A stretch of 64,000 nucleotides of DNA from Myxococcota bacterium (GCA_963674735.2 CAXXQS010000001.1:1909370-1973369), one strand, 5' to 3'; numbered from the stretch's first letter, positions 42,118 through 60,312 are shown. The notes: a model not told the origin generated them from the sequence alone. Program-made: numbers and translations.

Positions 42118-42194
42118 CGGGGCGTAGCGCAGTCTGGTAGCGTACCTGAATGGGGTTCAGGTGGTCGCTGGTTCAAATCCAGTCGCCCCGACCA
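42118..42194 (+). tRNA. tRNA-Pro (anticodon GGG)
   Basis: Hand-folded cloverleaf: acceptor CGGGGCG/CGCCCCG, anticodon arm CCTGA-ATGGGGT-TCAGG (GGG, G37), T arm GCTGG-TTCAAAT-CCAGT, encoded CCA. Confidence 0.9.
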
Positions 42195-42332: not shown

Positions 42333-43232
42333 TCAGTGCTGAGACTCACATAGGGGCTCTGCTACCTCGATACTTGGGAAGTCCGAGAGTATTTGATCAA
42401 CGCGGGATTGAAGATTGGCAATGAGTTTTCTTATCGTGGGCGTACCTAAGAGAGATTCAACGTCTTCGCGATTACAGCCACCGTACTCCGCCATGATCCA
42501 GACAAACTCCACTGTGTAGTCTGCATTCATCTTGAGAAGTGACCGTCGTGCGGAGTTGATTTCTTTCCGATCAGCCGGTAGCCATTTCACACCTTGTCTG
42601 GCCAGGATATGGATTACCTTTAGCAGGCACCGTGAATCTGAAGTGTCAATATCGTGGACCTTATTTCGACCATACAGATCGATGCTCCGGGTCCATTCTA
42701 AGCCAATAAGACAGGACTGCATCAGGGAGGCACCTCCGTCGGGCATATCCGCAAACTGATACCCCTTCTCGATCAACTCCATGAGGAATTGGGCATTCCC
42801 TGCAAAGCAAGCTTCCCGTAGTATTACTTCGGCGATCGGATGGTCTGGCGGAACGTTAACTTGCTTGAGCTTGAAAATATCGAATCTTCGGCACTCCGCT
42901 GCCCATTCTAAGGCAGACATGTCTCCATCTGGATCGGGTTCATCATCTGGTGATACAGGCCCCCTGGTGTACGGATCTGCTCCTGCCCACAACATGAGCG
43001 ATACCCATTTCATATTGCCTTCAAAACAATGGTGTCGTAACGCGTTGTTCATTTGCTCCTGGAAGTTGGGGAATTGATGTCCGTAACGCTTGATCACACC
43101 AAGGGTAGTTCGGATTCTCCAGCATGCTTTGCTCCCCGTTGCATGGACCACCTGAAGAGTTAGAATCCGGGTTGAGAATGAGCCATGCGGCTCGACCGTT
43201 TGGATCGTAGCACAAGTTTCCCTTCCAATCAC
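42333..43232 (-). pseudogene. Degenerate ankyrin-like repeat gene, probably frameshifted and 5'-truncated
   Basis: ALRHHCFEGNMKWVSLMLWAGADPY-type ANK-like units. The only start for the long ORF is a GTG. A second frame (ORF 43021-43290) reads protein-like sequence (DWKGNLCYDPNGRAAWLILNPD) running up to the IS boundary. Confidence 0.3.
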
Positions 43233-43397: not shown

Positions 43398-44237
43398 TTA
43401 AAGCGCTAAACTCCGGGGGTTCGGGGGCAGCGCCCCCGAGAAGAAACGCTGCCGCTCCTCTTGCGGCGTCCGATACTCCAGACTACTGTGTGGACGATAC
43501 GTGTTGTATTTCCTACGCCACATTTCCGTCTTTACCTGCGCTTCCCTAAGCGTCAGGAATATCTCCATGTTCAAATGCTCGTCGCGCACCTTCGAGTTGA
43601 AACTCTCGATGAAACCGTTCTGCCAGGGACTGCCCGCGTCGATGTGCAGCGTGTCCGTGCCGCGCTTATTGAGCCACGTCTTGAGTTTCTCGGCAATGAA
43701 TTCCGGGCCATTATCACTGCGGATAAAGGCCGGATTGCCGTACTGATTGAAGAGGCCATCGAGTATGCATATTAAGTCATCCGACTTGATGCCACGGTCC
43801 ACATGGATCGCCAGGCCTTCCCGCGTGTACTCGTCCTCCACCGTCAACAGCTTGATCCGCCTGCCGTTGCTGAGCGAATCGAACATGAAATCGTAAGTCC
43901 ATACGTGGTTCGGGCACTCAGCCTTGACCGGCAGGCCCGCCGACTTCGTTTTCTTTTTCTTGCGCGGTTTGCGTCTTGGCAGGCAAAGCTCCATCTCCCG
44001 CCAGACGCGGTACACCCGTTTCAAATTGACGATGTCATCCCGGACGATCACGCCCCAGGCCCGGCGATAGCCGAAACGCGGCTCGTCTTCTGCAATCGCT
44101 TTCAGTCGGGCCGCCAAGGCTGAATCATCACGCGGATGGGCCTTGTAGTAGTACGTGGATCGTCGCAGTTTCACCAACGCGGACAGACCACGCGAGGCCG
44201 CGTGATCCACCGCACACCGACGCTGCGCCGCCTTCAC
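43398..44237 (-). CDS. IS3-family transposase OrfB (DDE integrase core)
   Basis: HVWTYDFMF, LTVEDEYTRE, IRSDNGPEF, SPWQNGFIESFN, YNTYRPHSSL motifs. Expressed in the -1 frame relative to orfA. Confidence 0.9.
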   Translation of the reverse strand: MKAAQRRCAVDHAASRGLSALVKLRRSTYYYKAHPRDDSALAARLKAIAEDEPRFGYRRAWGVIVRDDIVNLKRVYRVWREMELCLPRRKPRKKKKTKSAGLPVKAECPNHVWTYDFMFDSLSNGRRIKLLTVEDEYTREGLAIHVDRGIKSDDLICILDGLFNQYGNPAFIRSDNGPEFIAEKLKTWLNKRGTDTLHIDAGSPWQNGFIESFNSKVRDEHLNMEIFLTLREAQVKTEMWRRKYNTYRPHSSLEYRTPQEERQRFFSGALPPNPRSLAL

Positions 44238-44503
44238 CAGTTTTTTTCCAACAACTCCTTGGCCACGTCGAGTTCCAGATCCCGCTCGGCCAACAGCCGT
44301 TTCAAGCGGGCGTTCTCTTTTTCAAGATCTTTAAGCCGCTTTGTCTCCGAAACCGACAGGCCCCCGAATTTTTTGCGCCAGCGATAGAACGACTGCTCCG
44401 ACACCCCGTGCTTGCGGCAGATCTCCTGCACCGTCGAGGTCTTGCACTCCGCTTCCTTCAAAATCGTCACGATCTGCTCGTCCGAAAACCGCTTTCCTTT
44501 CAT
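44234..44503 (-). CDS. IS3-family transposase OrfA (HTH)
   Basis: MKGKRFSDEQIVTILKEAE...SEQSFYRWRKKFGG...LKDLEKENARLKRLLAE leucine-zipper region. Confidence 0.9.
   Translation of the reverse strand: MKGKRFSDEQIVTILKEAECKTSTVQEICRKHGVSEQSFYRWRKKFGGLSVSETKRLKDLEKENARLKRLLAERDLELDVAKELLEKNW
44241..44247 (-). promoter_or_regulatory. -1 programmed frameshift heptamer A AAA AAC of IS element 1
   Basis: T7 on the plus strand equals GAA AAA AAC TGG TGA in the orfA frame. A -1 slip reads AAA AAA CTG GTG AAG GCG, which is ...KKLVKAAQRR, the start of orfB. Confidence 0.8.
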
Positions 44504-44615
44504 CAGAATCCCTCCTTGAATCATCGGAGGATTCTAACACATCAGCGGTCCAGCTTTTGGGGGGCAAGGCAGCATGTTAGAATTCAGCTGAATTTCCTAG
44601 AAAGGAGTCGCGGTT

Positions 44616-44891
44616 ATGGCGAAGCGAAGGAGTGTTGAAAACATCATCGGTCAGTTGCGCAAGGTCGAAGTTTTGCAATCCCAGGGGCAAACGATTGCGC
44701 AGTCTGTCAAGGCAATTGGCGTAACAGAGCAAACCTACTACCGTTGGCGCAAAGAGTATGGCCGTTTGAATCTGGACCAGGCCAAACGTCTGCGCGAGCT
44801 TGAGGATGAAAACGCCCGTCTGAAGAAGCTGGTGGCCGATCTGTCCCTGGACAAGGCGATCCTGAAGGAAGTTGCCGAGGGAAAGTTCTGA
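44616..44891 (+). CDS. IS3-family transposase OrfA
   Basis: [18 protein letters not shown] and [22 protein letters not shown] zipper. Confidence 0.9.
44879..44885 (+). promoter_or_regulatory. -1 programmed frameshift heptamer G GGA AAG of IS element 2
   Basis: GAG GGA AAG TTC TGA in the orfA frame. A -1 slip reads GGG AAA GTT CTG AGC CCT ... and enters the orfB frame (..[16 protein letters not shown]). Confidence 0.75.
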
Positions 44892-44914
44892 GCCCTGCGA
44901 AGCGGCAAGCGGCG

Positions 44915-45775
44915 GTGAGGCATGTGATGGCGATCCAGCATGTTTCCGAGCGTCGGGCTTGTTGCGTCCTGGGCCAGCCCCGTTCGACCCAACGTCGCGT
45001 TCGAATTTCTCGCTCGGACGAAGCTCTGCTGACCCAAGCTATTGTCAAATTGGCAAGCCGTTACGGACGCTACGGATATCGTCGGATCACTGCGCTCTTA
45101 CGCGCAGACGGCTGGCGTGTCAACCACAAGCGGGTGGCTCGGATCTGGCGTGAGCAGGGATTGAAAGTACCGAAGAAGCAGCCGAAGCGCGGGAGATTGT
45201 GGCTGAATGATGGGAGTTGTATTCGACTGCGGTCACTCTTTACTGATCATGTTTGGAGCTATGATTTCGTGCAGGATCGCACACGCGATGGGAGAGCTTT
45301 GCGAATTCTGTGCGTGATCGACGAGTACAGCCGGGAGTGTTTGGCACTGACGGTGAAACGGAATCTGAATTCTCAAGACGTGCTGCGAACTCTGGATGAT
45401 CTGTTTATCAGGCGTGGCATCCCGAAGCATATCCGCAGTGATAACGGGTCTGAGTTTACGGCGAAAGCAGTGCGTGACTGGCTGAAGATGCTTGCAGTGA
45501 AGCCACTCTACATCGAGCCGGGCAGTCCGTGGGAGAATGGTTACGTTGAAAGTTTCAATGGGAAACTTAGGGATGAATTGCTGAATCGAGAGTTGTTTGA
45601 TAGTTTGAAGGAGGCTCAGGTTCTGATCGAAAGTTGGCGGCAACATTACAATACGGTGCGTCCGCACAGTGCGTTGGGCTACAAGCCACCAGCACCGGAG
45701 TCGATTTTACCGCCGATTGCCGTCGGAGAATTCCAAGGTCTCCAAAGTCAATCGGCTGGTTATCGTCTAACATGA
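44915..45775 (+). CDS. IS3-family transposase OrfB (DDE integrase core)
   Basis: [50 protein letters not shown] motifs. Confidence 0.9.
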
Positions 45776-45843: not shown

Positions 45844-47700
45844 TCATATACCATCATTGATTGTTCTGACAAGCCGGAAGCCAACATGATTTGCTTTGTT
45901 CGCAGGTTGGCGATAACAACGTCTACCAAGTATGCAAGCTTCCGCTGAACTTCCCCAGAAACACCCCCGAAACGCGATGCCATAGTTTTCCGAGCCCTCT
46001 GAAAAATCAATTCCCGCAGGACTCGTCTCCGGATCATTTCCAGAATATAGATGGATATCAGGATTAAATTTGTCATAAACCCATTCTCTTGTGTTTCCGA
46101 GAATATCGTAAATACAATTTCCGTTAGGCTGTTTCAATGCAATTGGCTTCGTTCCACAATATATTCCCGAAGGTCCGCCCAGTATCGAACACTCCACGGC
46201 ATCTTCATACTCAACGTGAGAATTCATAAGATACCACGCGCTTAAATCAAGCACCGGGTCCAATACATCATCGTAAATCGTAATATTTCCGTTGTATGCA
46301 TAGGTCGTTGTGCCTGCTCGCGCAACATATTCCCATTCAGCCTCTGTGGGTAACCGGTAACCTTCACAATCGTAGGCGGAAGCAACCTGATTAAGCGTGA
46401 TTACTGCATTGGAAATGCCTCCGCGCGTAAGGCAATCCGCCTCGGCTTCCACCGTTTCGTCGTTTCCACACGTAATGGAATCAAATATGTAACACGGGGT
46501 AAGTCCTTCCTGCTGCGACAAATTGTTTGCGTAGTGTAGGGCATCGAAATAAGTTACGCTCTCGACCGGGCAAGTTGGGCCGCAAGCGGAGAACTCTGAA
46601 GGGTTGCTTCCCATCAGCGATTCATAATCTGCTTGCGTGACCTTTGTGTTCATTACATAAATATCGCGGCTTAGTGAAACTTGATGCGGAGTCGCCATCA
46701 TATCGAGGGAAAACCCCATCGTAAAGGAACCCGCTGAAATCGGCACAAAACGGCGCTCGACGACCGGTGGCGTACACGTCGATGTATCGAAAGCGGTGCA
46801 TTGATCGTTACAAGTCGCTATTTCATCTGCATAATCGGAACAGATATCGGAACACAGTATCGTGCTTGAATCACAAACTTCTTTATCTTCCAGAGTTTCA
46901 TTTCCACAAATATTTTTCAGACATCTCCCGTCCTCGCAACCCAACTCGCATTCCGTAACCTCGAAGTTGTGGCAATCATAATAATATTCGTAGATGCAAT
47001 TTTCCAAATTGTCTACGTTGCAACGATGCCAGCTTCCTATACATTCATTGTTGCAGGTAACACAATATGACACATCGGGACAGAAACCGTTTAAGCATTC
47101 GTGTTGCTTGACCCACGTCGTGCAGGTATCGCTTATACGCTCGCAGGTCCACATCGCCGCAAATTCCCAGTAATTACACTGTTCCTCACCGATTACGCTG
47201 CAAGGGTAGGGGCAATCCTCGCTCTCCTCTTCGGTGCTTTCATTTCCTTCGAAGCTATCGTCTTCCGTGTTGTTCTCGTTTTCATTGCTTTCAATGATTT
47301 CTAATTCTTCGTCGGCATCGAACACATCCTGCTCGACAATTTCGTTATCACCATCGCTTTCATTTTCATAATCACTATCTGAATCCAGGTCACCATCACT
47401 TACGCTCTCGCAATCACTATCGGAATCCATTCTATCGAAATCGGAATATTCATCCGATTCTTGATCGCCATCGGCAGGCAGATCACCGTCAATCGAATTG
47501 TCCTCATCGTCCGCTAACTCGCGATCCAAGTCGCCGTCTTCCGGCGTGGATGAATCATCCTCTGTAAGCTCATCAGCTTCACGATCGGACTCAATATCCA
47601 ACTTGAAATCACCATCGCGATCGCCGTCGAGCGTATCGTCATTCGATGAATTGCAGGAAATACAGAGCGCAGCCAACAAGGCGAGTAATAGAAGCTTCAT
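45844..47700 (-). CDS. Lipoprotein with acidic spacer, Cys-rich module and a C-terminal FGE-sulfatase (SUMF1/C-type-lectin-fold) domain. Operon gene 4
   Basis: GAGGTG RBS before the ATG at 47700. Lipobox ALCISC and a long D/E/S spacer. CGNETLEDKEVCD resembles a Myxococcus Cys-rich repeat. GYRLPTEAEWEYVARAG ... NHVGFRLV are FGE-family signatures. Confidence 0.75.
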   Translation of the reverse strand: MKLLLLALLAALCISCNSSNDDTLDGDRDGDFKLDIESDREADELTEDDSSTPEDGDLDRELADDEDNSIDGDLPADGDQESDEYSDFDRMDSDSDCESVSDGDLDSDSDYENESDGDNEIVEQDVFDADEELEIIESNENENNTEDDSFEGNESTEEESEDCPYPCSVIGEEQCNYWEFAAMWTCERISDTCTTWVKQHECLNGFCPDVSYCVTCNNECIGSWHRCNVDNLENCIYEYYYDCHNFEVTECELGCEDGRCLKNICGNETLEDKEVCDSSTILCSDICSDYADEIATCNDQCTAFDTSTCTPPVVERRFVPISAGSFTMGFSLDMMATPHQVSLSRDIYVMNTKVTQADYESLMGSNPSEFSACGPTCPVESVTYFDALHYANNLSQQEGLTPCYIFDSITCGNDETVEAEADCLTRGGISNAVITLNQVASAYDCEGYRLPTEAEWEYVARAGTTTYAYNGNITIYDDVLDPVLDLSAWYLMNSHVEYEDAVECSILGGPSGIYCGTKPIALKQPNGNCIYDILGNTREWVYDKFNPDIHLYSGNDPETSPAGIDFSEGSENYGIAFRGCFWGSSAEACILGRRCYRQPANKANHVGFRLVRTINDGI

Positions 47701-47767
47701 GCTCGTCCACCTCATGAAGGGAAATGAATTATCCCCAATATTCGATCACTACAGGAATAAAGTTTCC

Positions 47768-49102
47768 TTATTGGGTCCATTCATCGAGCGGCCCGGCGAT
47801 CCCGCGAATGGAATAATCGTAGGGCGATAGCCACATTACATCGCCGTCGTCGGTAACAAGCCAGTGCTGCGTCGAGCCGAGAATCGCATCGGAGGCTGGT
47901 GTGCCATTCGGCGCGAAACCATAAAGATTGGACTGCATGGGCACACCTGCGACCCGCTGGAGACCACCACGCTCGGCATCAATAATGAAAAGAGCGGAGT
48001 GAGTGCCCGAGAGGACGTAGGTAATTCCGTTATAGGAAATAATGCTTTTATTGCTTATACAACAATCTAAAGAAAATGGCAGCCATGCCGCTTCGCACTC
48101 AGGATATTCAACCCAATGCTTGCACACCTCCAGTTCGGGCTCCAGGTGCGTTTCCAACAACCAATCTCCATTTTCGTTCGTATCTATTGAAACAAGCCGA
48201 CCAATAAACTCTGCCCAGCCCCGCCGATTTAGGATAGGAAAAAGGAATCCTCCATAATTTGAGTATTCCGGTTTATTGATTCCTCCACACGCCGAATAGT
48301 AGGTGCCGTCAGGATCACAATATGACCGAATCAGCTCCATGTAATTGTTCTGAATCGACACTCTATAAAATCCACTTTCCTTGCGCATTACAATACTTTC
48401 TTCAGTTTCTTCTTTCATACGACCAATAATATCAATTTCAGACCAGTTCGCGATTGAAAGAAAATGAAAATGAGATTCTTTCTCGGTTAAATCATAAGCT
48501 AATATCCCTGATGCGACATAATCAGGATTCTCGTATAGCCATCCGTCTTTATAGAATGATAAATATAATCTATCATCAATAATAACACTATCAATGACTT
48601 CGGGCGGAGTTGTCTGCGGCTCCCATCCTTGTTCGGAAATCTCCGGCAACTTGATGTAATCCAAAATCTCGGACGTCTCTTCCGTCAGCGAATACAAGAC
48701 GAAATCCCAGTCCTTGTTGTAACTGATTTTAGTGGGATCAATTGCTAGAATTCGCTTGTTGGCTTCGTCCCAAACAATCGGAAAATTCATGCCGGTTGTC
48801 GGGATTTGCGGGTAATAATCGCGCGGGAAAAAGCCCCAGGTGAAGGTCTGCCCCGTCTCAACTTCATCACGCCAGAGAGTTTTTGGATACTCCACATCCG
48901 CGGGATTTTCCGGGCGGGGTCGCGCTTCTGCCTCTTGTTCCTCTTCCACCTCGATATCGCTGTCGCCATCGATTTCGAGGTCTTCATCCCCGCCGCTCAA
49001 CTCACCGCCACCGCAACCGACGACCAGCACTAGGCACAAATATACAATTACTGCCCATCCGCATCCGCGGTTTCGACACTTCCGGCTACGCTTCTTGCTC
49101 AT
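47768..49102 (-). CDS. Lipoprotein with acidic spacer, beta-rich, unknown function. Operon gene 3
   Basis: ATGA start/stop overlap with the upstream giant gene. Lipobox LVVGCGGG, then GGDEDLEIDGDSDIEVEEEQE. Confidence 0.65.
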   Translation of the reverse strand: MSKKRSRKCRNRGCGWAVIVYLCLVLVVGCGGGELSGGDEDLEIDGDSDIEVEEEQEAEARPRPENPADVEYPKTLWRDEVETGQTFTWGFFPRDYYPQIPTTGMNFPIVWDEANKRILAIDPTKISYNKDWDFVLYSLTEETSEILDYIKLPEISEQGWEPQTTPPEVIDSVIIDDRLYLSFYKDGWLYENPDYVASGILAYDLTEKESHFHFLSIANWSEIDIIGRMKEETEESIVMRKESGFYRVSIQNNYMELIRSYCDPDGTYYSACGGINKPEYSNYGGFLFPILNRRGWAEFIGRLVSIDTNENGDWLLETHLEPELEVCKHWVEYPECEAAWLPFSLDCCISNKSIISYNGITYVLSGTHSALFIIDAERGGLQRVAGVPMQSNLYGFAPNGTPASDAILGSTQHWLVTDDGDVMWLSPYDYSIRGIAGPLDEWTQ

Positions 49103-52100
49103 TCAACCTCTTTCCAGTAGGCAACCGGAGATTTTAATCGGGCCACGACAAACACCACGTCGATACGACTGATCTTATCGACATCCTTCCATGTGTTATC
49201 GAATTCGTTCTGATAGGAATATGGCGTAGGATAATCCTGGCCTATCTGGCTCATTAGGATGTCCGGCGCATCGGTATCCCTCTGCTCATTATAGCAGAGA
49301 TTGCTTGGAATGGAGTAGCCATAGTCTCGATTATGCGATCTGACCACCCGAGTTAGCTCTTCCGCCCGATCGCCATCGTAAACCAGATACCAAGACCCTA
49401 AGACAGGAAGACCTCGGATATGTGAAGAGTAGAGGTATTCCATATCTTGCATTATGGAACCGCTACGATAATCGTTTACAATTGTTCCGTTTCCCGTGGT
49501 TGCGGCATCTTCATGGAAAAGATGCTGTCGCTCATACCAGCTAAGCAAAGGTTTCGGACACGTCACCGCCCGTTTTGCAATTTCTCCACTTAGACCTTTA
49601 AACGAAACCGTGACTGGGCTGTTGCATGTCAATTCTCCATCGATCCTAAGCGGCTCAAGCCCCCAAGCGGCAGCATTGACAATAAACAGGTTTCCTTGAT
49701 CATCTTTGTGCGGAAATCCGTTTTCGTAATAATAAAAGTTGTCGTGTACACCGCCATCGGGACATTCCAGCGGATTTACTCCTGTTGATGGATCATTGTC
49801 CAAATCCGCCGTTATGCAGCAGTTAACCTGCATACCCGTTTGTGCGTCATACTCACACCAGTAATCGGCATAATAAACCTTATACCGCACCTCGTAAACG
49901 ACCGGAGGCGCGATATGTATTCCATTTTCATCAACGATGCTCTCGTAGGTATTAATTCCAAGATCCTGCGGAGACACCGTGAACTTGGTCACACCTTTCG
50001 AAAGAAAGGCATCCGCAGGTCCAGCGTAGTGGCAATCCTCGTCCGGACAAACTTCGAACGAGCTTCTATCGCAGTAGCGCGGCTGCTCGATCAGCAAGGT
50101 CGCCTGACAGTTTTCTCCGTTTTCATCGCAATCTTCGACCATCTCCCCGGTATCTTCTGCCTCGTAGTAACATGGAATACGTTCGAGCGTCTTCACGACA
50201 TACGTAAAGGGCATAAACGTTTGACCGCCATCGCCGAGTGACAATTTCAGATTATCGACACTTTCCGCGAGTAGACTTGCATAGCCGCTAGTCATGCTCT
50301 CAATCTTTTCTTCAATATTCTCTACTATCCAATGATCTTCATTGTAATCCTTTCTTGCTTCTAATACCTTTTCTCTATATGATGAATCAATAGCATCATA
50401 TTCTTGTTCCTGCATGATGGCAGGCAACTGGAAACGGTAGTTAGACAGGTTATCCCAAAGGCTGGTGTGAAAACCATATCTGGGATAACGCTTGAAAGCG
50501 TTTTCCTGCGGACTCCAAGATGCGGGAAGCGTAACATAGGGCGGGACTTCACTCTGCCCTAAAGTCGTGTACATAATCTGCGAAGCGCTGTAGATCTCTC
50601 GTTTTGCGGCCTCGACGGAAAGCCTCAATCCTTCGCATGTACTACCCAACCCAACACGGTCGTATTGATCGTCGCGCCAATTCAAATTAACGTATTTCCG
50701 CCAACTCGCGATATCTTCCAAAAATGTTTCCTGGTTTTCGATGTTCTGTCCATGGTAATTCATTGTCAATAGCGCCTGTTGTAACTGCATTTGTATCATC
50801 TGGGAGCTGATGCGCATTGATTCAACGATTTGTGAAATCGTTAATAACTGAATTTGGAATTCAGCCAAATGCATTTCTAAAAACGCCCGATCATTTCCGG
50901 GACAAGGATCTGTTCCAAATATCCACTCTAAAACCGTACTGAGTGTCCCCAGAGCTTCGCCAATGGGTCCGAAAAAGTCTGCCATTTCGCCTAAAACATC
51001 CGAAACCTCACCCAAATTTTCGTATACACCGAAATATTCCGGCATGGCCATACTCATGAGATAGTTATCTCGCATTTCATATAAACGCATCGTGTTTTCA
51101 TCAAAGCAAAGTTGCCGTATCTTATCGCACAATGTTTTCCCTTTACTAAAAGCTTGTGTCATGTATCCATTCACATCGCGTGCGGTGTTCAACATTTCCG
51201 TATTTATATACTCTTCACCGTAACATCTATCCGTCATTTCGTTGAGCATCTGCACAAGGCCAGTTTCCCGATTGCAAACAAGTCCCTCTTCCGTCATATC
51301 GCAACCCAGCATTAGTTGCGCACGTCTCGCAAAGCCATCCAGAGACTCGTTAAGTTCTGCCTCTAATGCGATTAAGCTATCCACTAGCATTTTGAAATCG
51401 TAAATCTGCTTTGAGGATGTGTTGATCTGTTGATCCGCATATCTAGTCAGAATTTCGCCCATCATGTCCATTCGTTCTTGAAGTCCCTGAGTAAAGATCG
51501 CATCTTGGCGTCGATCTCGAAGGGTTGTAAGCAAAATATTGATGCTATCTTGAAGCTTGTACCAGCGTTGAATATAACTATCGAACCCAGTTGGACGCGA
51601 TACATAAGCGTAGGAATTCAAATATGGATCCATATATGAAGGATTTTCGTAATCTTCTCCTTCATTTGCTAAATCGAAGTTTGACAACTGATACCAAGAT
51701 CGTGCAAGTGAACCATAAGGCATATCTATTGAGTTCACCTTAATGCCCAGCAAGTCTTCTTGTTTCGGATTCCTATATTCTTCCAACTTTTCAAATGTAT
51801 CAGATCTTAATGCACACTCTTTTACTGAATAGGGATGTTGTCCCACTATGACATATCGATTAGTTTTAAAATAATTATCTATTGCTTTAGCGAATAATAA
51901 TGTCAATCTCGGAGAATTCGGGTAATACATTGGTAAAGCATCAAACAGCTCATATGCAAGTTTCAGGAAATTGTTTTTATCTCTCATTGGTATGGCAGCT
52001 GCATCATCTGCTCTATCTGCAGCCTGCAAATATAAATTGAACAACTCAGTGTTGGACAATGTGAATTGAATGTCCTTTGTCAAATTGGGAGCAACCGGCC

Positions 52101-54207
52101 CTTCTTCGAGAGGGCCGTTTACTTCCGATTCTATATGATCTATTGAATTTTTCCATTGAGCAAGACCACGTCTCAAGTTGCCTTGCACCATATCCTTCTG
52201 GGACATGAGAGCAACTGGCATCGTTATTCCGAACGATGAAACCGGAAAATTTAACTCAGTACTTGCATCCATTTGAGGGTTTTCGCCGACATTGTAACAC
52301 CTCCATTTAGTGGATGACAAACCTCCAGAATTACCACAATCGGACGTCGGTAATTCTTCACCATCTGATGGGCATTGATCATTAATGCATGTAGGAATAC
52401 TATCACCCACGCATCCATTTAAACAATACCGCTCAATTTCCACACTTCCAGATACTACTGTTAAACATTTATTTTCAGATCCAAACAGATTAACCATGTT
52501 TTTCGACTTTATACAAAGCTCTATCTCGGAAAAGCCAGAATAGTCTTGCATTTGAAGAAGGCTTGAATACATCTTATAGTACAACGCATCAACAACTTCC
52601 TGTGCACCGGCGTACTGATTAAATATTTGTACAGTGTTTCTTTTATAAGCCGGTGCGTTGTGTTTTTGATTTGTCGATCCTTTGGCATAGTAAAAGCTGT
52701 CTTTTGAGTATACAGCGGCAAATCCTCCTTCAACTTCTTCATGGAACGTCGGCAATTCAAGCGTCCAGGTAATCTTTTTGTTATTGCCACTTCCCGAAAT
52801 ATTCTCGGTAAATAGTTCTAATGCTTCCAATTCAACAAGCGCTGCGTCGGTTCCATTGGGATAATAATCTTCAGCAGTCATATTGTCTTCGTGTAGGCTT
52901 CCAACTTCTACCCTATCATAAAACATTCCTTGCTGTGCATAGCCTAATCCTTCCCAATAGGCACGCGTGTTTATTCTGACAAGAGCATGTGCTGGCTTAA
53001 TGTTTTGGTGACTTGATAGTGCGGGAGGAATGCTATTTGTCTTTACTTCTTTTATACCAGTAACGTTGTTTGCCGCAACTAACAACACCGATGGAGTAGG
53101 AGTGTAAGCCCATACTCTCTTAAGCACTTCAAGTTCGCTTAGAGGCCTCGTACTTCCTGTGCTTGTTGGCGTACCATTTCCAACCCATTCAACGTCAATT
53201 TTTGTTTTAGGCTGTAGATTATCTACAATACCGGTTATTTTATTTGACAACAATATGGTGTTTAACCCTAGTTTAATGTAGTTTACAGGGATTTTGATAT
53301 TGGGAGCGGCAATAACTACTGTATTGGGGTTTTGTTCAAACAATTCTTCGTTTTCTCGCCGGTTATTATACAACCTTGTAAGGATTTGAGTTTTGTTGTC
53401 TATGCCATATCCTGATGCCGCTAAAGCAACAATTTCACCGGCATTTCCTGCTAATATATTATTCCTAGATAAGAATTCACATATTCCTAAAGCTAAGTCA
53501 TCTTCAGAACATATATATCTAGGATCCAGAACATAACCAATGTTTGTTGCAGGATCAATTGCGACCGTTAGTAACTCCGTTGCCGTCGAATTGCCATTCA
53601 ATCTATACTTGACAGCTGCTTTTGTTAGTATAAACCCGAACTTCGATCCAAAAATCAATGTGGACTTCGTATTCGCCTTTCCCATATAATCTGCGATTTT
53701 CTGAAGTTTCAGACTATCAATGTTGGGGTCGAATATTGCACCGGTAGCTGTAAACCTATTTGTTATTTCCTGGGTGTTAACTTCACTAAAATCAACCTGC
53801 TTGGGCCACATGTCGCAGTTGCTACCATCGATAAATCCCACCTTGTGGTAACCTAGCATCTCAGTTGAAGGCCTACTGTTCTTTATAAACTCGATTTCTG
53901 AATAGGATTCATCGTAAACGCTCACGTTTATCGGATGGTAAGACGTTTGAACCCCTTCAAAAGACCAGCCAGTTAAATCCGTTTCATTTGTAACGACTCG
54001 AATTTCATCAATTTCATTTATAGACTCGACCTTAACATCATTCATGCTGACCATCGTCGATTGTGTCTCAGAGTCAATATTGATTCTTATAAATGGCTCT
54101 TCTGCAGAGACTTCATAATCGCTTATTGTTACATCGGAGATCTCAGCAATGGGCAAGCTACGACCGCTAAAATCTATTGTAATGGCTTGCCCGTCCACGT
54201 GTGGCAT
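49099..54207 (-). CDS. 1702-aa orphan giant protein with no recognisable signal peptide or catalytic motif. Operon gene 2
   Basis: Uninterrupted 5.1-kb ORF in an AT-rich context, where long ORFs do not arise by chance. Beta-rich N-terminal third, a largely helical-looking centre and several Cys clusters. Confidence 0.75.
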   Translation of the reverse strand: MPHVDGQAITIDFSGRSLPIAEISDVTISDYEVSAEEPFIRINIDSETQSTMVSMNDVKVESINEIDEIRVVTNETDLTGWSFEGVQTSYHPINVSVYDESYSEIEFIKNSRPSTEMLGYHKVGFIDGSNCDMWPKQVDFSEVNTQEITNRFTATGAIFDPNIDSLKLQKIADYMGKANTKSTLIFGSKFGFILTKAAVKYRLNGNSTATELLTVAIDPATNIGYVLDPRYICSEDDLALGICEFLSRNNILAGNAGEIVALAASGYGIDNKTQILTRLYNNRRENEELFEQNPNTVVIAAPNIKIPVNYIKLGLNTILLSNKITGIVDNLQPKTKIDVEWVGNGTPTSTGSTRPLSELEVLKRVWAYTPTPSVLLVAANNVTGIKEVKTNSIPPALSSHQNIKPAHALVRINTRAYWEGLGYAQQGMFYDRVEVGSLHEDNMTAEDYYPNGTDAALVELEALELFTENISGSGNNKKITWTLELPTFHEEVEGGFAAVYSKDSFYYAKGSTNQKHNAPAYKRNTVQIFNQYAGAQEVVDALYYKMYSSLLQMQDYSGFSEIELCIKSKNMVNLFGSENKCLTVVSGSVEIERYCLNGCVGDSIPTCINDQCPSDGEELPTSDCGNSGGLSSTKWRCYNVGENPQMDASTELNFPVSSFGITMPVALMSQKDMVQGNLRRGLAQWKNSIDHIESEVNGPLEEGPVAPNLTKDIQFTLSNTELFNLYLQAADRADDAAAIPMRDKNNFLKLAYELFDALPMYYPNSPRLTLLFAKAIDNYFKTNRYVIVGQHPYSVKECALRSDTFEKLEEYRNPKQEDLLGIKVNSIDMPYGSLARSWYQLSNFDLANEGEDYENPSYMDPYLNSYAYVSRPTGFDSYIQRWYKLQDSINILLTTLRDRRQDAIFTQGLQERMDMMGEILTRYADQQINTSSKQIYDFKMLVDSLIALEAELNESLDGFARRAQLMLGCDMTEEGLVCNRETGLVQMLNEMTDRCYGEEYINTEMLNTARDVNGYMTQAFSKGKTLCDKIRQLCFDENTMRLYEMRDNYLMSMAMPEYFGVYENLGEVSDVLGEMADFFGPIGEALGTLSTVLEWIFGTDPCPGNDRAFLEMHLAEFQIQLLTISQIVESMRISSQMIQMQLQQALLTMNYHGQNIENQETFLEDIASWRKYVNLNWRDDQYDRVGLGSTCEGLRLSVEAAKREIYSASQIMYTTLGQSEVPPYVTLPASWSPQENAFKRYPRYGFHTSLWDNLSNYRFQLPAIMQEQEYDAIDSSYREKVLEARKDYNEDHWIVENIEEKIESMTSGYASLLAESVDNLKLSLGDGGQTFMPFTYVVKTLERIPCYYEAEDTGEMVEDCDENGENCQATLLIEQPRYCDRSSFEVCPDEDCHYAGPADAFLSKGVTKFTVSPQDLGINTYESIVDENGIHIAPPVVYEVRYKVYYADYWCEYDAQTGMQVNCCITADLDNDPSTGVNPLECPDGGVHDNFYYYENGFPHKDDQGNLFIVNAAAWGLEPLRIDGELTCNSPVTVSFKGLSGEIAKRAVTCPKPLLSWYERQHLFHEDAATTGNGTIVNDYRSGSIMQDMEYLYSSHIRGLPVLGSWYLVYDGDRAEELTRVVRSHNRDYGYSIPSNLCYNEQRDTDAPDILMSQIGQDYPTPYSYQNEFDNTWKDVDKISRIDVVFVVARLKSPVAYWKEVE

Positions 54208-57200
54208 TTCTGCATGGTAAAGTTTAAGGTCCGCTGCGATGTTAATGGCCCCATAATGTCAAAACGTGTTAATTCACTATTCTTATTTCCTAGCACATAC
54301 AGATTTACGCCTTCGAAATTGATTGAAGGAGCATAAAAAGCGGGCCCACGGAAGATAACAGTTCCGTTCCCTTTCGTTACCTCGCTGCTATTTATTATCT
54401 CGACGCTAGTGTTATCGCTAACTTCAATAATTCCGTTTACAGCACTTATTTTGCCAACAATAAAAGATGAAATCATATCGTCCACTATAACTCGTCGGTA
54501 AGAATCTTTTTTATTCACTTGCAACTCACCTAGACGGATTTCGCTACCGTCAATTCCGGCAACTACACTCTTCCTGTCTCCTGTGAAATTGATTGCCGCA
54601 TTACTGATATCCGCAGATGCCGTTTTTAATATTATATTTGAGTTTACGCTAACAGAAATTCCCGGATTTGTTATGAATTCTCCTTCATGTATAGTTAATT
54701 GCTCCAACTCCAATTCTGGCGTAGTTACAATTACAGTTCCTCCTCCATAAAGCACAAGATAATTTGCATATATTGGACTACTGATATATCGAATCTCCCC
54801 CTCAGGAACTAATAAGCCAATCTCCTCTACATCATTATGTGTGAGATCATCATCCATTAGAACTGGTATCTCGTTTTTACCGATATACAGGTAATCATGA
54901 TTATCTGGAGTGTAATTGTATTCATGCCGTCCTTCTAGTTTACTTTCACCCGTCAGCAACAACTCTCGTGGAAGCCGATAGTTTTCCGCTTCTTCAAAAC
55001 AATTCATACTCCCGACTACAAATTCCGTTGATCCAAATGATTTTAAGGTATTTCCATGGGCAGTATTAATATAATTAATATAGCTATAGTCGGCATTAAA
55101 TTCCGTTAATGAGAAAAATATCTTCTCCCCACATGAAATTGCTCCGCTAGGCTGAATATTATTTACAACAATTTCCTGCCCAATTTCTTCTCCATCAAGG
55201 ACTTTATGTTGGCTTATAATTGTTTTAACATCATTCAAGTAATCACTTGGAATATATTTAACTATACGCACTGCACCTTCACCGGTGAAGGACGCAGAAA
55301 TATAGTTGCCCGGATGCTTGTGTATCCATGCAGGAGAATCAGATATGTAAAATGTTCCTCTTTCATTAAACCCCATCGCATGTAGACTGATTCCCGATGA
55401 ATTTCTAGCTACAAAGTACATATTTCCTTCGTATTTAGCGGTATCAAAGTCAAGAAATCCTCCAGCCACAACAACATCATGATCGCTTATAGTTCTGACG
55501 CGGATTTCATCAATATCAAGTACAGTAATTTTTCCTGCGAGATCATTTAGAGAATTCTTGGGTCCACCGATGAGAACCTCTTCAAACCCATCACCATTTA
55601 CATCTAAAGAATCAATATTACAATACGATCTGTCAGGGATCATGAACTGTGAATACCATAATCCTTCTCGATGCAATTCACGCAATCCAGGATAAGTATA
55701 CACGGCGACTGAAACAACTTGATCCTTTACTTCGCATGTTGCCATTGCCATTCGACCAGTTTTCATTTTGAAGAATGTCTTTGCGTAAGAATTATAACTT
55801 GTCATCGACGGCACTTTAGTTGAATATTCGAAATAATCGCTACTAAAAGCAACCGGAGAACTCGCTAAATCGGACGGTTCAATAAGCACATGACGCATTG
55901 CATTGATATAGCAACTGCTGCCACCGATGAAAGTTCCGTTAAACTGCCCCTTGTCTACATCGCATTCCCAGCAACCATCTTCCGTTCTTTGGTTGTCCTC
56001 AATACATTCACCTTTGATATAACACATATTATTGCTTATACTCATAACACATTGACCCATGCTACATGCATACTGGCCGCAGCTAGGAGCGTCATTTCCA
56101 CTTGAGCAGGATTGGCCTTCTGATTCACTATTCCAGTACCAAGAATACTTGAATACGTTGGGATTACACAGAGAACAGCCATTCGGAGATTGCTGCCCTT
56201 CGGGAATACATTGATTATCGATTAAACAATATCCATCAGATACATCAGCAACACATTGGGACTCATGGCAAGTTCCCAATACGCAAGGCAAATCAGAATC
56301 AACATCGCAAGATTCACCATCATCAATCCTGTGTACGCACCCTAATTCGACGTCGCAGGCATCAGTTGTACAAGGATTGTCGTCATTACAATCTAAAAAC
56401 GACTTGGGGGTACAAACACCATCAATACAAGTATCACCGATCGTACATTCATCTTGATCGTTGCATGGTAAGTAGGAAACAGATGACCATTTATTCGGCG
56501 TAGTGGAGTCGCATAGCTGACATGGTTCTTCTGGTTTTTTCATTCCCTCTTCGAAGCAATATCCATCAATATAGCAAACTCCCTCCTTAAGGCGCGTTGC
56601 ACATGTACCAGAAAAAGAACTGCAGTAAGCCGAATGACAATTTGAGTCTAGATACTCGCAATCATTATCTGTGTCGCATTCTCCGGAGTATTGGCATCCA
56701 TTTATGGTGCAGATTCCGTTTCCTAAACATGTATTCTGGCCTATGCATACTCCTTCCGAGCAGCGATCATTATCTGTGCATGAAAACGTATCATCACATG
56801 AAGTTCCATTTACTGCATGTGTAGAAACGCATTCCTTTTGTGAGTCATCGCAAATTCCAACTGTGCAAGCACCATCATCTAGATATGAACAATCGAGCTG
56901 TGGATTTTCGCAAAATGGCAAAATTGTAATCACGATCTCGGCGGAATTTTCATTTTTATACGCCGTTATTTTGTGAACGCCTACAGGCAGATTTGATTTT
57001 TTAAATTCCCATGGATATCCTTTTCCAATGGGATTAATGTCCAGCTTGAACTCGGAATTTCCAATTGTGTTAACGGTGCCATCAGGCGCAGTATGCTCAC
57101 TTTTCCAATTCACCGTTCCAGTTCCGTTGTACTCGACATCAAAGTGAATTTCATCCTTCTCGTAGTATTCACTCTGAGTTGGTTTTTCAATGGTTACCTT

Positions 57201-57275
57201 GCACGAGACGGCGATAAGGGCAACAAAGAAAAATACGATAACCCGCATGGTTGCTAACATACAAGTATTACGCAT
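54174..57275 (-). CDS. Large lipoprotein: Ig-like N-module, tandem Cys-rich C-x-D-x-N-x-C-T-type repeats, FG-GAP-like segment, beta-helix-like C-terminus. Operon gene 1
   Basis: AGGAG lies 6 nt before the ATG at 57275. Lipobox LIAVSC. Repeats such as CNDQDECTIGDTCIDGVC / CNDDNPCTTDACD. DVNGDGFEEVLIGG is FG-GAP-like. The C-terminal repetitive N/G/S/I/V-rich strands suggest a beta-helix. Confidence 0.75.
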   Translation of the reverse strand: MRNTCMLATMRVIVFFFVALIAVSCKVTIEKPTQSEYYEKDEIHFDVEYNGTGTVNWKSEHTAPDGTVNTIGNSEFKLDINPIGKGYPWEFKKSNLPVGVHKITAYKNENSAEIVITILPFCENPQLDCSYLDDGACTVGICDDSQKECVSTHAVNGTSCDDTFSCTDNDRCSEGVCIGQNTCLGNGICTINGCQYSGECDTDNDCEYLDSNCHSAYCSSFSGTCATRLKEGVCYIDGYCFEEGMKKPEEPCQLCDSTTPNKWSSVSYLPCNDQDECTIGDTCIDGVCTPKSFLDCNDDNPCTTDACDVELGCVHRIDDGESCDVDSDLPCVLGTCHESQCVADVSDGYCLIDNQCIPEGQQSPNGCSLCNPNVFKYSWYWNSESEGQSCSSGNDAPSCGQYACSMGQCVMSISNNMCYIKGECIEDNQRTEDGCWECDVDKGQFNGTFIGGSSCYINAMRHVLIEPSDLASSPVAFSSDYFEYSTKVPSMTSYNSYAKTFFKMKTGRMAMATCEVKDQVVSVAVYTYPGLRELHREGLWYSQFMIPDRSYCNIDSLDVNGDGFEEVLIGGPKNSLNDLAGKITVLDIDEIRVRTISDHDVVVAGGFLDFDTAKYEGNMYFVARNSSGISLHAMGFNERGTFYISDSPAWIHKHPGNYISASFTGEGAVRIVKYIPSDYLNDVKTIISQHKVLDGEEIGQEIVVNNIQPSGAISCGEKIFFSLTEFNADYSYINYINTAHGNTLKSFGSTEFVVGSMNCFEEAENYRLPRELLLTGESKLEGRHEYNYTPDNHDYLYIGKNEIPVLMDDDLTHNDVEEIGLLVPEGEIRYISSPIYANYLVLYGGGTVIVTTPELELEQLTIHEGEFITNPGISVSVNSNIILKTASADISNAAINFTGDRKSVVAGIDGSEIRLGELQVNKKDSYRRVIVDDMISSFIVGKISAVNGIIEVSDNTSVEIINSSEVTKGNGTVIFRGPAFYAPSINFEGVNLYVLGNKNSELTRFDIMGPLTSQRTLNFTMQKCHTWTGKPLQ

Positions 57276-57488
57276 TTCACGCTCCTTAATAGAATTCACA
57301 TGAGCTTACTATGAGTACAATAAACAACTAAAACATACAAATTACAAAGTCAATAAAACAATCATGTGCAAGAATTATTACTGTGTAACTATCGCTAATA
57401 TGTAGTCGTATCAAATAGTTTGTTACATAATTTAAAGTGTAAAAGTCAAGAGCCTCCCGGACAGTTAGTCCTCTCGGTTGTTGGCTGA

Positions 57489-58574
57489 CTAGGCCGTTTC
57501 GGGAGTCGGTTCCTCCATTTCTTTTTTCTTGTTTTTCGTCTCTTTGATTTCGATGATTTCAGCTCGCTTCTTCTTTCCCATTTCAAACGTTTCGACCGGT
57601 CTTCGTCCCTGGTTTCTGTACCCGCGATGGGGGCGTTGATTGTTGTAAGACTCGAGCCAGGCGTCGAGATCGGTCTGGAGTTCCTCCAGGCTGAGATATA
57701 GCTTTTCCCTGAAAGCGGTTCTGAAGAATTCATCGAGTACGGTTCGGTTGAAGCGTTCGACGAATCCGTTTGTCCTCGGTGTTGCGACCTTGGTGTAGCG
57801 ATGCTTGATGCCGTGCAGCTCGAGCAAGATCTCGTAGAGATGGATCATGGGTCGTCCCTTGAATTCGGTTCCGTTGTCGGTGAGGATGTTTTCAATGATC
57901 AGTTCGTTTTCCTCATAGAACGGCAGGACGTGGTCGTAAAGGACATCGGCTGCGGTTTCCGGTCTTTTGGATGTATAGAGCTTTCCGAAGGCGATGGAAG
58001 AGTAGGTATCGACCACGGCCTGCAGATAGATTCTTCCGACGCCTTTCATTCGTCCGACGTACAAAGTGTCCTGGCAGATCAGCTGGCCGGGATACTCGCT
58101 CTCCACATGGCGCTCCCTGAAACAGGGATTTGCTTTTTCAATGAGACGGATCTGTTCTTCTGTCAGTTCGACACCCGCTTCTTTGACGACTTTTTCCTCA
58201 AGCAGCAGCAGTCGCTTGTAGCGGGTTTCCATGTTTTCCTTGATCCAGAGATTGCGTACGGATGATGCGGATACGGAGACGCCTTGAAGCTGCAACTGGT
58301 CGGCGATGCGCTGCTGTCCGAATGTCGGATGCTTTAGAGAGAGCGAGATAATCGTCTCCTTGGTCTCATCGGAAAGCTCGTTTGGGTGTGGCCCTGGAAT
58401 GGGCGGTTTGTCCATCAGGCCTTCGAGGCCGAACTCCTGGAAATCGCGTTTGTACTCATAGAATTGACTTCGCGACACCTCTTGCAGACGACAGGCTTTG
58501 GATACGTTTCCGAGTTTTTCAGCAAGCTGTAGCAATGTGAGTCGTTTTCGTGCTAATTTTTCCTTGGCGATCAT
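57489..58574 (-). CDS. IS481-family transposase (HTH plus integrase core)
   Basis: AAGGAG RBS before the ATG at 58574. Motifs QDTLYVG, ENILTDNGTEF, TPRTNGFVERFNRT, YNNQRPH. Confidence 0.9.
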   Translation of the reverse strand: MIAKEKLARKRLTLLQLAEKLGNVSKACRLQEVSRSQFYEYKRDFQEFGLEGLMDKPPIPGPHPNELSDETKETIISLSLKHPTFGQQRIADQLQLQGVSVSASSVRNLWIKENMETRYKRLLLLEEKVVKEAGVELTEEQIRLIEKANPCFRERHVESEYPGQLICQDTLYVGRMKGVGRIYLQAVVDTYSSIAFGKLYTSKRPETAADVLYDHVLPFYEENELIIENILTDNGTEFKGRPMIHLYEILLELHGIKHRYTKVATPRTNGFVERFNRTVLDEFFRTAFREKLYLSLEELQTDLDAWLESYNNQRPHRGYRNQGRRPVETFEMGKKKRAEIIEIKETKNKKKEMEEPTPETA

Positions 58575-58638
58575 TGATATCTCCTTCTCGATAAATGGTG
58601 GTTTGGTCACTGTCCATTATACCGAGAGGACGACCGCC

Positions 58639-58678
58639 GGCCAGTCCTGGGAGCTTTGCGGCTCCCTACGGACTGGCC
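58639..58678. repeat. 40-nt imperfect palindrome inside the transposase-proximal end of the IS481 element
   Basis: GGCCAGTCC-T-GGGAGC-tttgcg-GCTCCC-TAC-GGACTGGCC. This segment has no counterpart at the other IS end, where CCCGGACAGT is followed directly by the shared GTCCTCTCGGT. Confidence 0.7.
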
Positions 58679-58959
58679 TCATACTAAGCTTCGACTGTCC
58701 GGGAAGATCCTAACTTTTTCACCTCGATATTCCAATAACCATCAATGATACCGATGATCTCGTCAAGAACACGGTTTGATGAGAAAAGCGGGAATCTTGA
58801 AGGCAAAGACAAAAGCCGGGGCAGGAGTGATGTCTTGTTTGAGAAAATTGGCGCTGGGCATCATGCACGAAATCAATGGTGATCGAACCATTCCAAACCT
58901 CATGTATCATCTTGCTACAAAACTTCGTTACGCTTTTTCAAACTTAGAATTGAATCGCC

Positions 58960-60312
58960 GTGGTCCATGGCAGACAAGGATGGACTTGGTTGAGATTATC
59001 TGGTATTGCACTGAAGAATTATGTGATAGACGAACAGGAGGAAACACCGCTGCTCAATAAAAAAACAGATACAGTGACCTATTCAATCGATAGCTGGCGA
59101 CGGAAGGCGACCAACGTATACAGCCTTTTTATGATGGTTGCGACTCTTCCTGTCCTTATTAGCGTCTATTTTCTTGATGTCACTACGCTGCAACAGAGCC
59201 TTTTGGGTCTATCCGCATGGTTGCTGACCTTTTGTGCGGCTGCTCTACGGCGCTTGGATGTACGATATCGTATTATGCTTATGGTTATTTCAGTCTGGAT
59301 TTTAACGTCACTCATACTTACCCATGGAGGTATGTTTCTCAATTTTCGTTTGCCCTTAATCAATTTACCTATGATGGTTTTGATGCTTGGTGGGGCGCGC
59401 TTTGGACTCGCAGTCGGAGCCATTAACCTGCTGATTATGTTGCTTGCGGTCTGGGGAACTCAAACAGGGTTGCTGCCACAGGTTGCCCCTGAATGGAATG
59501 ACACCATTGCCAAGATGCAATATTTAACGGCGTTCACGCTCTTTGTTCCACACCTTCTATTGCTGGCATGGTTCAGTCATCACCTGACAAGCGCCATTCG
59601 CCGGGAGCATTTGGCAACGGCGCGTTTACAGAAAGAAGCACAGCAGCGGATGCGGCTTGAAGTTGAAGTCGTGGAAACTGGTGAGCGTGTAAGCCGACAT
59701 ATCGGGAGTGAACTTCATGATGGGGTGTGCCAGGATCTGACCGGGTTATTGCTTCGCACAAAGCGTGCTCAGAAGACTTTGACGGCCAATAATCGTCCGG
59801 AAGCAGATACCTTGAATGGAATCGTCGAAGGGCTGGGAGATGCCATTGGCGAAATTCACGGTCTTTCACAGACCTTGAGTCCAGGTTTTCTGACCTGTCG
59901 GGATTTGGCGGATGCGATTGAGGTTGTGGCTCAGCGCTTCGGAGAAGCTTCGGACGCCAGTATCGAATTTCGGGTTCAGGGAGATGGACCGGTCCAGAAC
60001 GAACAGGCCACGCTTCACCTCTATCGGATAGCTCAAGAAGCGATTGCAAATGCTATCCGACATTCCGGAGCAAAGCGGATCGAGGTTTCTCTGATATATA
60101 AGCCGGACATGACCGTTCTGCTTGTGGATGATGACGGGCAATGGATTGTGCCGAATGAAAAAGCACAAGACGGGCTTGGACAGAAAACAATCCGCTGGCG
60201 GGCATCCGTCATCGGAGGAACCCTCACTGTGGGATCCAAGGCGAGAGGCGGCAGTCGTGTTGAGTGCCGGGTGCCTATTGAACAGAAAGATGTCGAGGTA
60301 AAACATGATTAA
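58960..60312 (+). CDS. Membrane sensor histidine kinase, NarL/DegS type (HisKA_3 plus HATPase_c)
   Basis: About 6 TM helices. H-box SELHDGVCQDLTGL, N-box EAIANAIRHSGA, G-boxes DDDGQ / GLGQKTI. The start is uncertain (GTG 58960 or ATG 59131). Confidence 0.8.
   Translation: MVHGRQGWTWLRLSGIALKNYVIDEQEETPLLNKKTDTVTYSIDSWRRKATNVYSLFMMVATLPVLISVYFLDVTTLQQSLLGLSAWLLTFCAAALRRLDVRYRIMLMVISVWILTSLILTHGGMFLNFRLPLINLPMMVLMLGGARFGLAVGAINLLIMLLAVWGTQTGLLPQVAPEWNDTIAKMQYLTAFTLFVPHLLLLAWFSHHLTSAIRREHLATARLQKEAQQRMRLEVEVVETGERVSRHIGSELHDGVCQDLTGLLLRTKRAQKTLTANNRPEADTLNGIVEGLGDAIGEIHGLSQTLSPGFLTCRDLADAIEVVAQRFGEASDASIEFRVQGDGPVQNEQATLHLYRIAQEAIANAIRHSGAKRIEVSLIYKPDMTVLLVDDDGQWIVPNEKAQDGLGQKTIRWRASVIGGTLTVGSKARGGSRVECRVPIEQKDVEVKHD

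Follow-up and report, generated by a model that had tools for sequence, protein, structure and literature searches.

A giant lipoprotein gene apparently split by a single-base frameshift in a probable mobile three-gene cassette of a Myxococcota bacterium

TraA of Myxococcus carries a Cys-rich repeat region between its anchor and a distal head, and its partner TraB is encoded nearby (PMC13184517). TvpA of Treponema denticola (PDB 2y3c) is a binding protein with the FGE subtype of the C-type-lectin fold (PMC6328139). Here, we analyzed a locus that recalls parts of both systems, at positions 45844-57275 of a 64-kb stretch of DNA from a Myxococcota bacterium (GCA_963674735.2, CAXXQS010000001.1:1909370-1973369; the whole stretch is called "the window" below). 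We read it as a rare, horizontally transferred cassette of three lipoprotein genes whose proteins act outside the cytoplasm, and we give this picture as a whole a probability of about 0.6. That the cassette consists of three genes, the first of them split by a frameshift, is very likely from the sequence.

The likeness to TraA/TraB lies in the general plan, a cell-surface-type protein with a Cys-rich region and a head, accompanied by a partner gene, and serves as a conceptual model only. Against Pfam and NCBIfam families, a Dicty_CTDC-type Cys repeat was the only similarity detected, and the giant protein of the cassette differs from TraA in its N-terminal lipid anchor and in being about four times as large. 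In TraA, a C-terminal sorting tag provides the anchor and one domain is variable and PA14-like, while an OmpA domain is present in TraB; these features were not seen here. PorK/GldK and GldJ, lipoproteins on the FGE-sulfatase fold whose partners are very large surface adhesins, are a further point of comparison. The modular, very large, extracytoplasmic design of the giant is also that of giant multidomain surface adhesins and Ig-repeat lipoproteins, among them the Big_3_5 protein encoded at 61211-64000 of the window, but about 1,900 residues of the giant (its beta-strand-rich region and head) match no Pfam family or PDB sequence in single-sequence scans and PDB profile searches. Nothing found makes the cassette a categorically new system; its class is that of the giant multidomain surface lipoproteins or adhesins.

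The cassette appears in the window as four open reading frames (ORFs):

54174-57275, minus strand: gene 1, read as the 5' part of the giant lipoprotein gene (1033-aa ORF)
54249-54252, minus strand: putative frameshift site, a GGGG run (CCCC on the plus strand)
49099-54207, minus strand: ORF of the 1702-aa giant, read as the 3' part of the giant lipoprotein gene
47768-49102, minus strand: gene 3, a 444-aa lipoprotein with lipobox LVVGC and an acidic linker
45844-47700, minus strand: gene 4, a 618-aa lipoprotein with lipobox LCISC

Below, gene A is gene 1 together with the 1702-aa giant, gene B is gene 3 (444 aa), and gene C is gene 4, the lectin-fold gene; positions in the repaired giant are counted in a 2733-codon ORF. 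The preliminary description of this DNA had drawn four tightly packed minus-strand genes, and its ORFs and junctions are real: gene 1 and the giant overlap by 34 nt, the giant and gene 3 overlap by 4 nt (ATGA), and genes 3 and 4 are separated by 52 or 67 nt, depending on the start. The ORF of gene 1 spans 54174-57299 (1041 aa), with the real start most likely at ATG 57275, which has AAGGAG ahead of it and gives 1033 aa. For gene 4, whose ORF spans 45844-47715 (623 aa), the start at 47700 is better supported and yields a 618-aa protein with a textbook lipoprotein signal, MKLLLLALLAALCISC. Shine-Dalgarno sequences are present for genes 1 and 3, and there is none ahead of ATG 54207. Lipoprotein signals in genes 1, 3, and 4 and acidic spacers in genes 3 and 4 had also been proposed, and both are visible: the lipoboxes are IAVSC, LVVGC, and LCISC, respectively (by sequence pattern only, with no predictor), and the linkers that follow the lipid-modified Cys of genes 3 and 4 are 45-46% Asp plus Glu. 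The lipobox Cys is invariant in all four propeller homologues, and the orthologous giant P0006 has ILSGC. A scan for promoters and terminators returned sites no more numerous than in shuffled sequence.

To judge from its relatives, gene A is one gene interrupted by a 1-nt deletion at 54249-54252. Inserting a single G at the GGGG run restores one 2733-codon ORF without an internal stop (2725 aa from ATG 57275). In contig L001, the gene upstream of the gene B homologue is a single 2943-aa ORF, P0006; gene 1 aligns to its residues 128-1127 at 39% identity and the 1702-aa giant from its residue 1139 onward at 34%, while the repaired protein aligns in one high-scoring segment pair (residues 25-2733 against 128-2942, 35.9% identity). 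A second relative, P0009, likewise crosses the gene 1/giant junction unbroken. The frames switch at ATGGGGCC (GGGG 54249-54252). Where P0006 reads FNVTGQVSVAADFKLHHVEIPSFY, the window reads FDIMG in the frame of gene 1 and then GAINIAADLKLYHAEMPHVDG in that of the giant. Ahead of ATG 54207, the giant's frame holds 17 further homologous codons, encoding GAINIAADLKLYHAE and matching GQVSVAADFKLHHVE of the orthologue, and the gene 1 ORF is out of frame past residue ~1016, its last 21 codons having no counterpart in the orthologue. Since the two parts are collinear with single ORFs in two organisms and the frames switch at the G-run, the 34-nt overlap is very probably a frameshift scar. The 1702-aa part thus corresponds to the C-terminal 62% of the gene 1 lipoprotein, and it would lack a signal peptide because the frameshift has separated it from the gene 1 N-terminus.

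These alignments bear directly on the model in the preliminary description, in which four translationally coupled genes encode a signal-less 1702-aa giant amid three lipoproteins. The ORFs do exist as drawn, the public annotation also lists two separate coding sequences (P0010, 1033 aa, and P0001, 1651 aa), and tRNA-Gly could, mechanically, slip by -1 on G-GGG. We nevertheless consider the model very unlikely, as both parts form one ORF in two other organisms, homology extends the full 17 codons upstream of ATG 54207 and ends in the gene 1 frame at the G-run, and this ATG has no ribosome-binding site. Furthermore, the 1702-aa ORF has 38 Cys and Cys-rich regions, for which an oxidizing compartment would be a better fit, and no frameshift is conserved in L001; programmed frameshifting is unlikely because P0006 has none. 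A separate giant gene without a signal peptide therefore drops out, as does the arrangement of three lipid-anchored partners around it, the giant being the C-terminal part of the gene 1 lipoprotein itself. The public two-gene annotation is better read as one interrupted gene. A signal-less giant of extracytoplasmic appearance arises here from a single-base frameshift and gives no basis for a four-component model.

The 5.1 kb past the site is fully open, so that the deletion must have arisen very recently unless it is an assembly error at a homopolymer. All conserved genes that were checked in the window (tilS, ftsH, cdaA, glmM, and a GH5 gene) proved intact, which counts weakly against a generally error-rich assembly. 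It may be that this genome makes no intact main protein. A real deletion would leave the head of the giant unexported and the cassette freshly inactivated, whereas a sequencing error would mean an intact cassette. Elsewhere in the window (16630-20216, plus strand), two ORFs of 654 and 560 aa without a Pfam or NCBIfam match overlap by 61 nt. They might be another split gene, which would then be relevant to assembly indel errors.

The repaired giant can be divided as follows:

Residues 1-33: signal peptide and lipobox (IAVSC)
Residues 34-128: Ig-like base domain, 45% identical (E=9e-34) to the start of the lipoprotein at 61211-64000
Residues 129-465: Cys region (337 residues, 46 of them Cys), in which a single Dicty_CTDC-type repeat comes close to threshold
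Residue ~566: single FG-GAP motif, DVNGDGFEEVLIGG
Residues ~800-1130: beta-strand-rich region, for which an earlier beta-helix label was not confirmed
Residues ~1130-2733: head, with an N-domain, a Cys cluster, predicted long helices, and a beta-rich C-domain

The Ig-like module that had been noted in gene 1 holds up as this base domain. It is common to the giant and its neighbor with Big_3_5 Ig-like repeats, which supports the Ig-like fold and points to a reusable module next to the anchor; from the sequence, the module may be specific to this lineage. In that neighbor, the signal peptide, the lipobox, and the first domain of ~95 residues are together 45% identical to the start of the giant, and the neighbor's GC content of 0.54 is host-like, unlike that of the cassette. 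A 33-nt similarity between position 40724 and the start of the same lipoprotein gene (61301) lies inside infC and was dismissed as chance. The Cys repeats described for gene 1 were confirmed as a Cys-rich region but not as "many" repeats, as only one copy fits the strict motif and three more fit looser forms of it. The FG-GAP segment is sub-threshold here (E=0.018) and above the cut-off in the orthologue (25.3 bits against 22.1), and its region gave a weak match to integrin alpha-4 in a PDB search (E=0.012). In the head, the N-domain has conserved NCDMWPKQ and GSK motifs, and the beta-rich C-domain is conserved (GLPLLGTWYLV...IDVVFVV), with GLPLLGTW and IDVV invariant. The 1702-aa part has no transmembrane segment or signal peptide; the repaired giant has 84 Cys, and its signal peptide is the only strongly hydrophobic stretch. 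We infer that the repaired giant would be an exported, disulfide-bonded protein.

Relatives of the giant are rare. An HMMER search of 1.84 billion representative proteins with its last 1,200 residues found five proteins, the giant included; the other four are P0006, P0009, P0007 (partial), and P0008, a 243-aa fragment. No match was found in GTDB representative genomes scanned with the giant, the source genome and the cassette thus being absent from species representatives, and a word-indexed protein search returned only the giant itself. Exact look-ups of the window proteins in a contig index gave no match. A profile search with the N-terminal part returned only annotated gene 1, and scans of IMG/VR and JGI metagenomes returned only P0008 and its contig, so a phage origin is not supported. 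Searches of the literature by accession number found no publication. The 1702-aa part has no match in Pfam, NCBIfam, PDB, PADLOC, or PHROG, neither PADLOC nor PHROGs had a relevant match for the window proteins, and separate Pfam scans of each relative yielded no further family. In PDB sequence and profile searches with the head, the N-terminal part, and gene 1, only chance-level spike heptad repeat 1 (HR1) coiled coils and the integrin FG-GAP match (E=0.012) appeared. The preliminary description had seen no recognizable secretion, toxin, pilus, or enzyme family, and this holds, for defence families as well, across Pfam, NCBIfam, PADLOC, PHROG, and PDB. Pfam and NCBIfam scans of the window proteins for Tc, Rhs-YD, MARTX, and CDI domains (VRP1/TcA, RHS/YD, RTX, haemagglutinin/TPS, and PT-VENN) were likewise negative; no toxin-family domain was found by Pfam in the four relatives, and none gave a PDB sequence or profile match. 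P0007 (encoded at L004) has an added C-terminal CARDB domain and contains a ~90-residue module twice, at ~700-790 and 1725-1815 (DSYDFSE...YLKDLKFYANNVGQ...IVFRVH), which indicates that the head family can take on further domains.

The product of gene B is probably a beta-propeller lipoprotein, judged from a predicted structure. Its three homologues, at 39-42% identity, come from a single metagenome assembly. An AlphaFold2 model built from the four sequences is all-beta, with a predicted local distance difference test score (pLDDT) of 63 and a predicted template modeling score (pTM) of 0.71. Foldseek returned 318 PDB matches at E<=0.001 with template modeling scores of only 0.35-0.47, and nearly all of the top 50 matches listed are propellers, none of them specific.

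Gene C encodes a 145-residue acidic linker, then a region with 23 Cys, and then a C-terminal FGE-sulfatase/C-type-lectin-fold domain. The last of these was correctly recognized in the preliminary description: residues 322-617 (623-aa numbering) match Pfam PF03781 with E=1.3e-25 over profile positions 4-255 of 255. The best solved relative is TvpA, with E=5e-24 over residues 315-616, ahead of human and bacterial FGE structures (1e-6 to 4e-7). Equivalog scores for EgtB, SenA, and PvdO fall well short of the cut-offs. The active site of FGE has a C-x4-C cysteine pair that binds copper and substrate. What we take to be the same position reads RGCFWGSSAEACILGRRCY in gene C and RGGSWAGSADYCAVGERV in TvpA; by eye, gene C appears to have no C-x4-C there, and TvpA, its closest solved relative in this domain, also appears by eye to lack the Cys pair. 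By eye, both proteins also have a divergent loop near the C-terminus. From RGC.W to GFRLVRT, the loop region that varies in TvpA, the two gene C orthologues are only about 19% identical, compared with 46% over their whole length; as far as two sequences can tell, a ligand-contact surface would look like this. Gene C differs from TvpA in having no retroelement or template repeat in the window and no Asn-rich variable codons, and in its 145-residue tether, its 23-Cys spacer, and its place in a three-gene cassette.

A gene-neighborhood comparison shows the three genes together elsewhere, as the preliminary description would lead one to expect. In L001, the giant, propeller, and FGE-fold genes stand in the same order with tight junctions (a 1-nt overlap and a 55-nt gap), at identities to the window of 36%, 42%, and 46%, respectively; such similar values are consistent with inheritance as one block. 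The L001 cassette has 36-41% GC against 51-61% in its flanks, and a tyrosine recombinase adjoins it. In L003, a 90-codon remnant of the giant's C-terminus (9229-9991; 41% identity to repaired residues 2646-2727) sits between a tRNA-Leu gene and a propeller homologue, directly upstream of the latter, and is read as what is left of a degraded cassette copy beside a tRNA gene. The propeller gene is alone in L002. On these limited numbers, the cassette is a conserved, mobile three-gene unit. In L002 and L003 (~10000-12000 in each), the propeller homologues lie in AT-rich patches of 0.40-0.41 GC in contigs of ~0.5, so the gene looks foreign even where it is alone. A giant with a Peptidase_M6 domain near the L003 propeller homologue was rejected as a coincidental neighbor, as it is unrelated to this giant and a tRNA gene separates it from the propeller gene.

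Composition and flanks in the window fit a mobile origin as well. Foreign, AT-rich composition had been claimed for the cassette and is borne out, as its GC content is 43% and that of the window's first 40 kb is 55%, with the L001 copy AT-rich too. The features around it are as follows:

42118-42194, plus strand: tRNA-Pro (GGG), the last core feature before the foreign region
43398-45775, both strands: two different IS3-family insertion sequence (IS) copies, facing apart, with no long repeat between them
57437-58722, minus strand: IS481-like element with 29-nt inverted repeats and a 373-aa DDE transposase
61211-64000, plus strand: second large lipoprotein, running off the window, with at least 8 Big_3_5 Ig-like repeats

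The IS481-like element reported upstream of the cassette and the IS3 pair reported downstream are both present. The former lies 162 nt upstream of the cassette start codon; the latter, which comes to within 68 nt of the lectin-fold gene's stop codon, consists of copy 1 on the minus strand (43398-44524; orfA 44234-44524, orfB 43398-44237) and copy 2 on the plus strand (44616-45775; orfA 44616-44891, orfB 44915-45775). A composite transposon was considered and rejected, as the flanking elements belong to different families and no long repeats bracket the cassette. The core genes infC, rplT, ihfA, and a MerR-like gene run up to tRNA-Pro (40238-42194, plus strand). Of the tRNA-Pro-linked island that had been proposed, the part that stands is that core genes stop and composition changes at the tRNA; the window contains no integrase and no att-type repeat or duplicated end of the tRNA, though the far border may lie outside it. 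The first foreign gene after tRNA-Pro is a 299-aa ORF (42333-43232, minus strand) without a family match, integrase families included. The flanks contain IS elements and a two-component system only, the latter a HisKA_3 histidine kinase and a LuxR-type response regulator (58960-60964, plus strand) between the IS481-like element and the Big_3_5 lipoprotein. The host belongs to a "deltaproteobacterial" lineage that lacks a close representative genome; its marker matches are to Myxococcota and Desulfuromonadales genomes, at up to 56% identity for GlmM and up to 67% for FtsH.

In the mechanism that we propose, Sec would export the three proteins, which would be lipidated and tethered to a membrane. 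The giant would project its orphan head outward on a rigid Cys-rich stalk, like the stalks of TraA-type proteins. The acidic linkers of genes B and C would serve as tethers; the gene C product would carry, at the end of its long acidic tether and Cys-rich spacer, a non-enzymatic domain of the FGE-type C-type-lectin fold. The propeller and lectin-fold partners could then act as co-receptors or scaffolds, and the complex would bind a ligand on another cell or a polymer. Among the roles considered, a tethered, lipid-anchored binding or recognition complex with a ligand or cell as its target seems most likely, and binding as the function of the cassette is held tentatively. Several points weigh against this picture. 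Surface display and a role in binding or attacking another cell are inferred, and no homology ties the three proteins to binding, adhesion, or surface exposure. An AlphaFold2 model of residues 640-1702 of the 1702-aa part, from five sequences, reached a pLDDT of 35 and was unusable; the long helices of the head are a low-confidence secondary-structure call only, and the Cys-rich stalk is drawn by analogy alone. Directly after the lipobox Cys, the giant has Lys and the orthologue Arg, and in Myxococcus lipoprotein sorting such a residue may mean that a protein stays in the inner membrane and is not displayed at the surface. Full copies of the cassette number only two, so the claim of conservation rests on two, and the propeller gene occurs without the giant in L002, so the trio is not an obligate unit. 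If functional, the cassette would represent a new protein family, lipid-anchored and very large, that has two lipoproteins as dedicated partners and moves horizontally between distant "deltaproteobacterial" hosts, and would be a candidate for a part in cell-cell recognition, adhesion, or predation.

Other roles can be set beside the tethered binding complex. The fold of gene C invites two of them. As its best solved relative (5e-24) is the variable protein of a diversity-generating retroelement, gene C could be the target of such an element and the cassette a hypervariable receptor system; the equivalent of the variable loop is also the most divergent part between the two gene C orthologues. 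A search of the 64-kb window with the last 307 nt of gene C (blastn) found no second copy longer than 24 nt (83%, E=6.6), and no reverse transcriptase occurs among the ~30 window ORFs scanned against Pfam or NCBIfam, which are all but a few of those of at least 180 aa. Targets of this kind of mutagenesis are expected to show an Asn-rich codon pattern, which by eye is missing from the gene C loop. With no template repeat, we rejected the idea for this window and give it next to no credence. Alternatively, the cassette could be gliding or type-IX-like machinery, with a PorK/GldK/GldJ-type gene C product and the giant as an SprB-like mobile adhesin. The cassette does pair a giant surface protein with an FGE-fold lipoprotein, and gene C has weak NCBIfam matches to GldK/PorK (E=1.2e-10), GldJ, and the Fibrobacter TIGR02171 lipoproteins. 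However, those scores are about a tenth of the cut-offs (GldK, 41.3 against 350 bits; GldJ, 21.3 against 383 and 18.8 against 458; TIGR02171, 56 against 544), and the similarity is confined to the generic FGE fold. Neither the cassette nor its flanks contain PorL/M/N or Gld genes, the giant has a lipobox, and its C-terminal domain has no Pfam or NCBIfam match. We regard such machinery as highly improbable here.

A contact-dependent weapon, the main alternative to the binding complex, would make more of the head, which would insert into the membrane of prey or a competitor as a pore or fusogen while the lectin-fold and propeller proteins recognize the target. Consistent with this, the low-confidence model has two helices of about 65 residues each, and a Gly-rich, mildly hydrophobic G/A/L segment between them (residues ~2100-2125) is conserved in all full-length members. 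The closest marker matches of the host are Myxococcota and related "deltaproteobacterial" metagenome-assembled genomes, and this group includes predators. The cassette is also mobile and patchy in its distribution, as weapons often are. Nonetheless, the searches gave no signature of a toxin or of Rhs/YD, Tc, MACPF, RTX, or CDI, the most hydrophobic window of the ~2100-2125 segment averages only 1.0 on the Kyte-Doolittle scale, and the spike HR1 matches, with E=0.034 at best and 0.5-4 otherwise, do not rise above chance. Moreover, the C-terminus is conserved rather than polymorphic, and no immunity-like small gene follows the cassette. We therefore think a weapon unlikely, and it is correspondingly doubtful that the head is a new class of contact-dependent, membrane-active device that moves between Myxococcota-like bacteria as a cassette.

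A few features of the window lie apart from the cassette. A second AT-rich patch (7000-11000, 0.40-0.48 GC), with genes for a family-2 glycosyltransferase (6699-8447, minus strand) and a TPR protein (8448-10373, minus strand), is probably another acquired segment. The cluster that ends at tRNA-Pro (infC, rplT, ihfA, the MerR-like gene, and the tRNA itself) has all of its genes intact, and so does a core cluster at 29096-36704 on the plus strand, in the order tilS, ftsH, a 289-aa ORF, cdaA, a 329-aa ORF, and glmM. The genes ftsH, cdaA, and glmM occur together in most of the 80 related "deltaproteobacterial" loci that were fetched.

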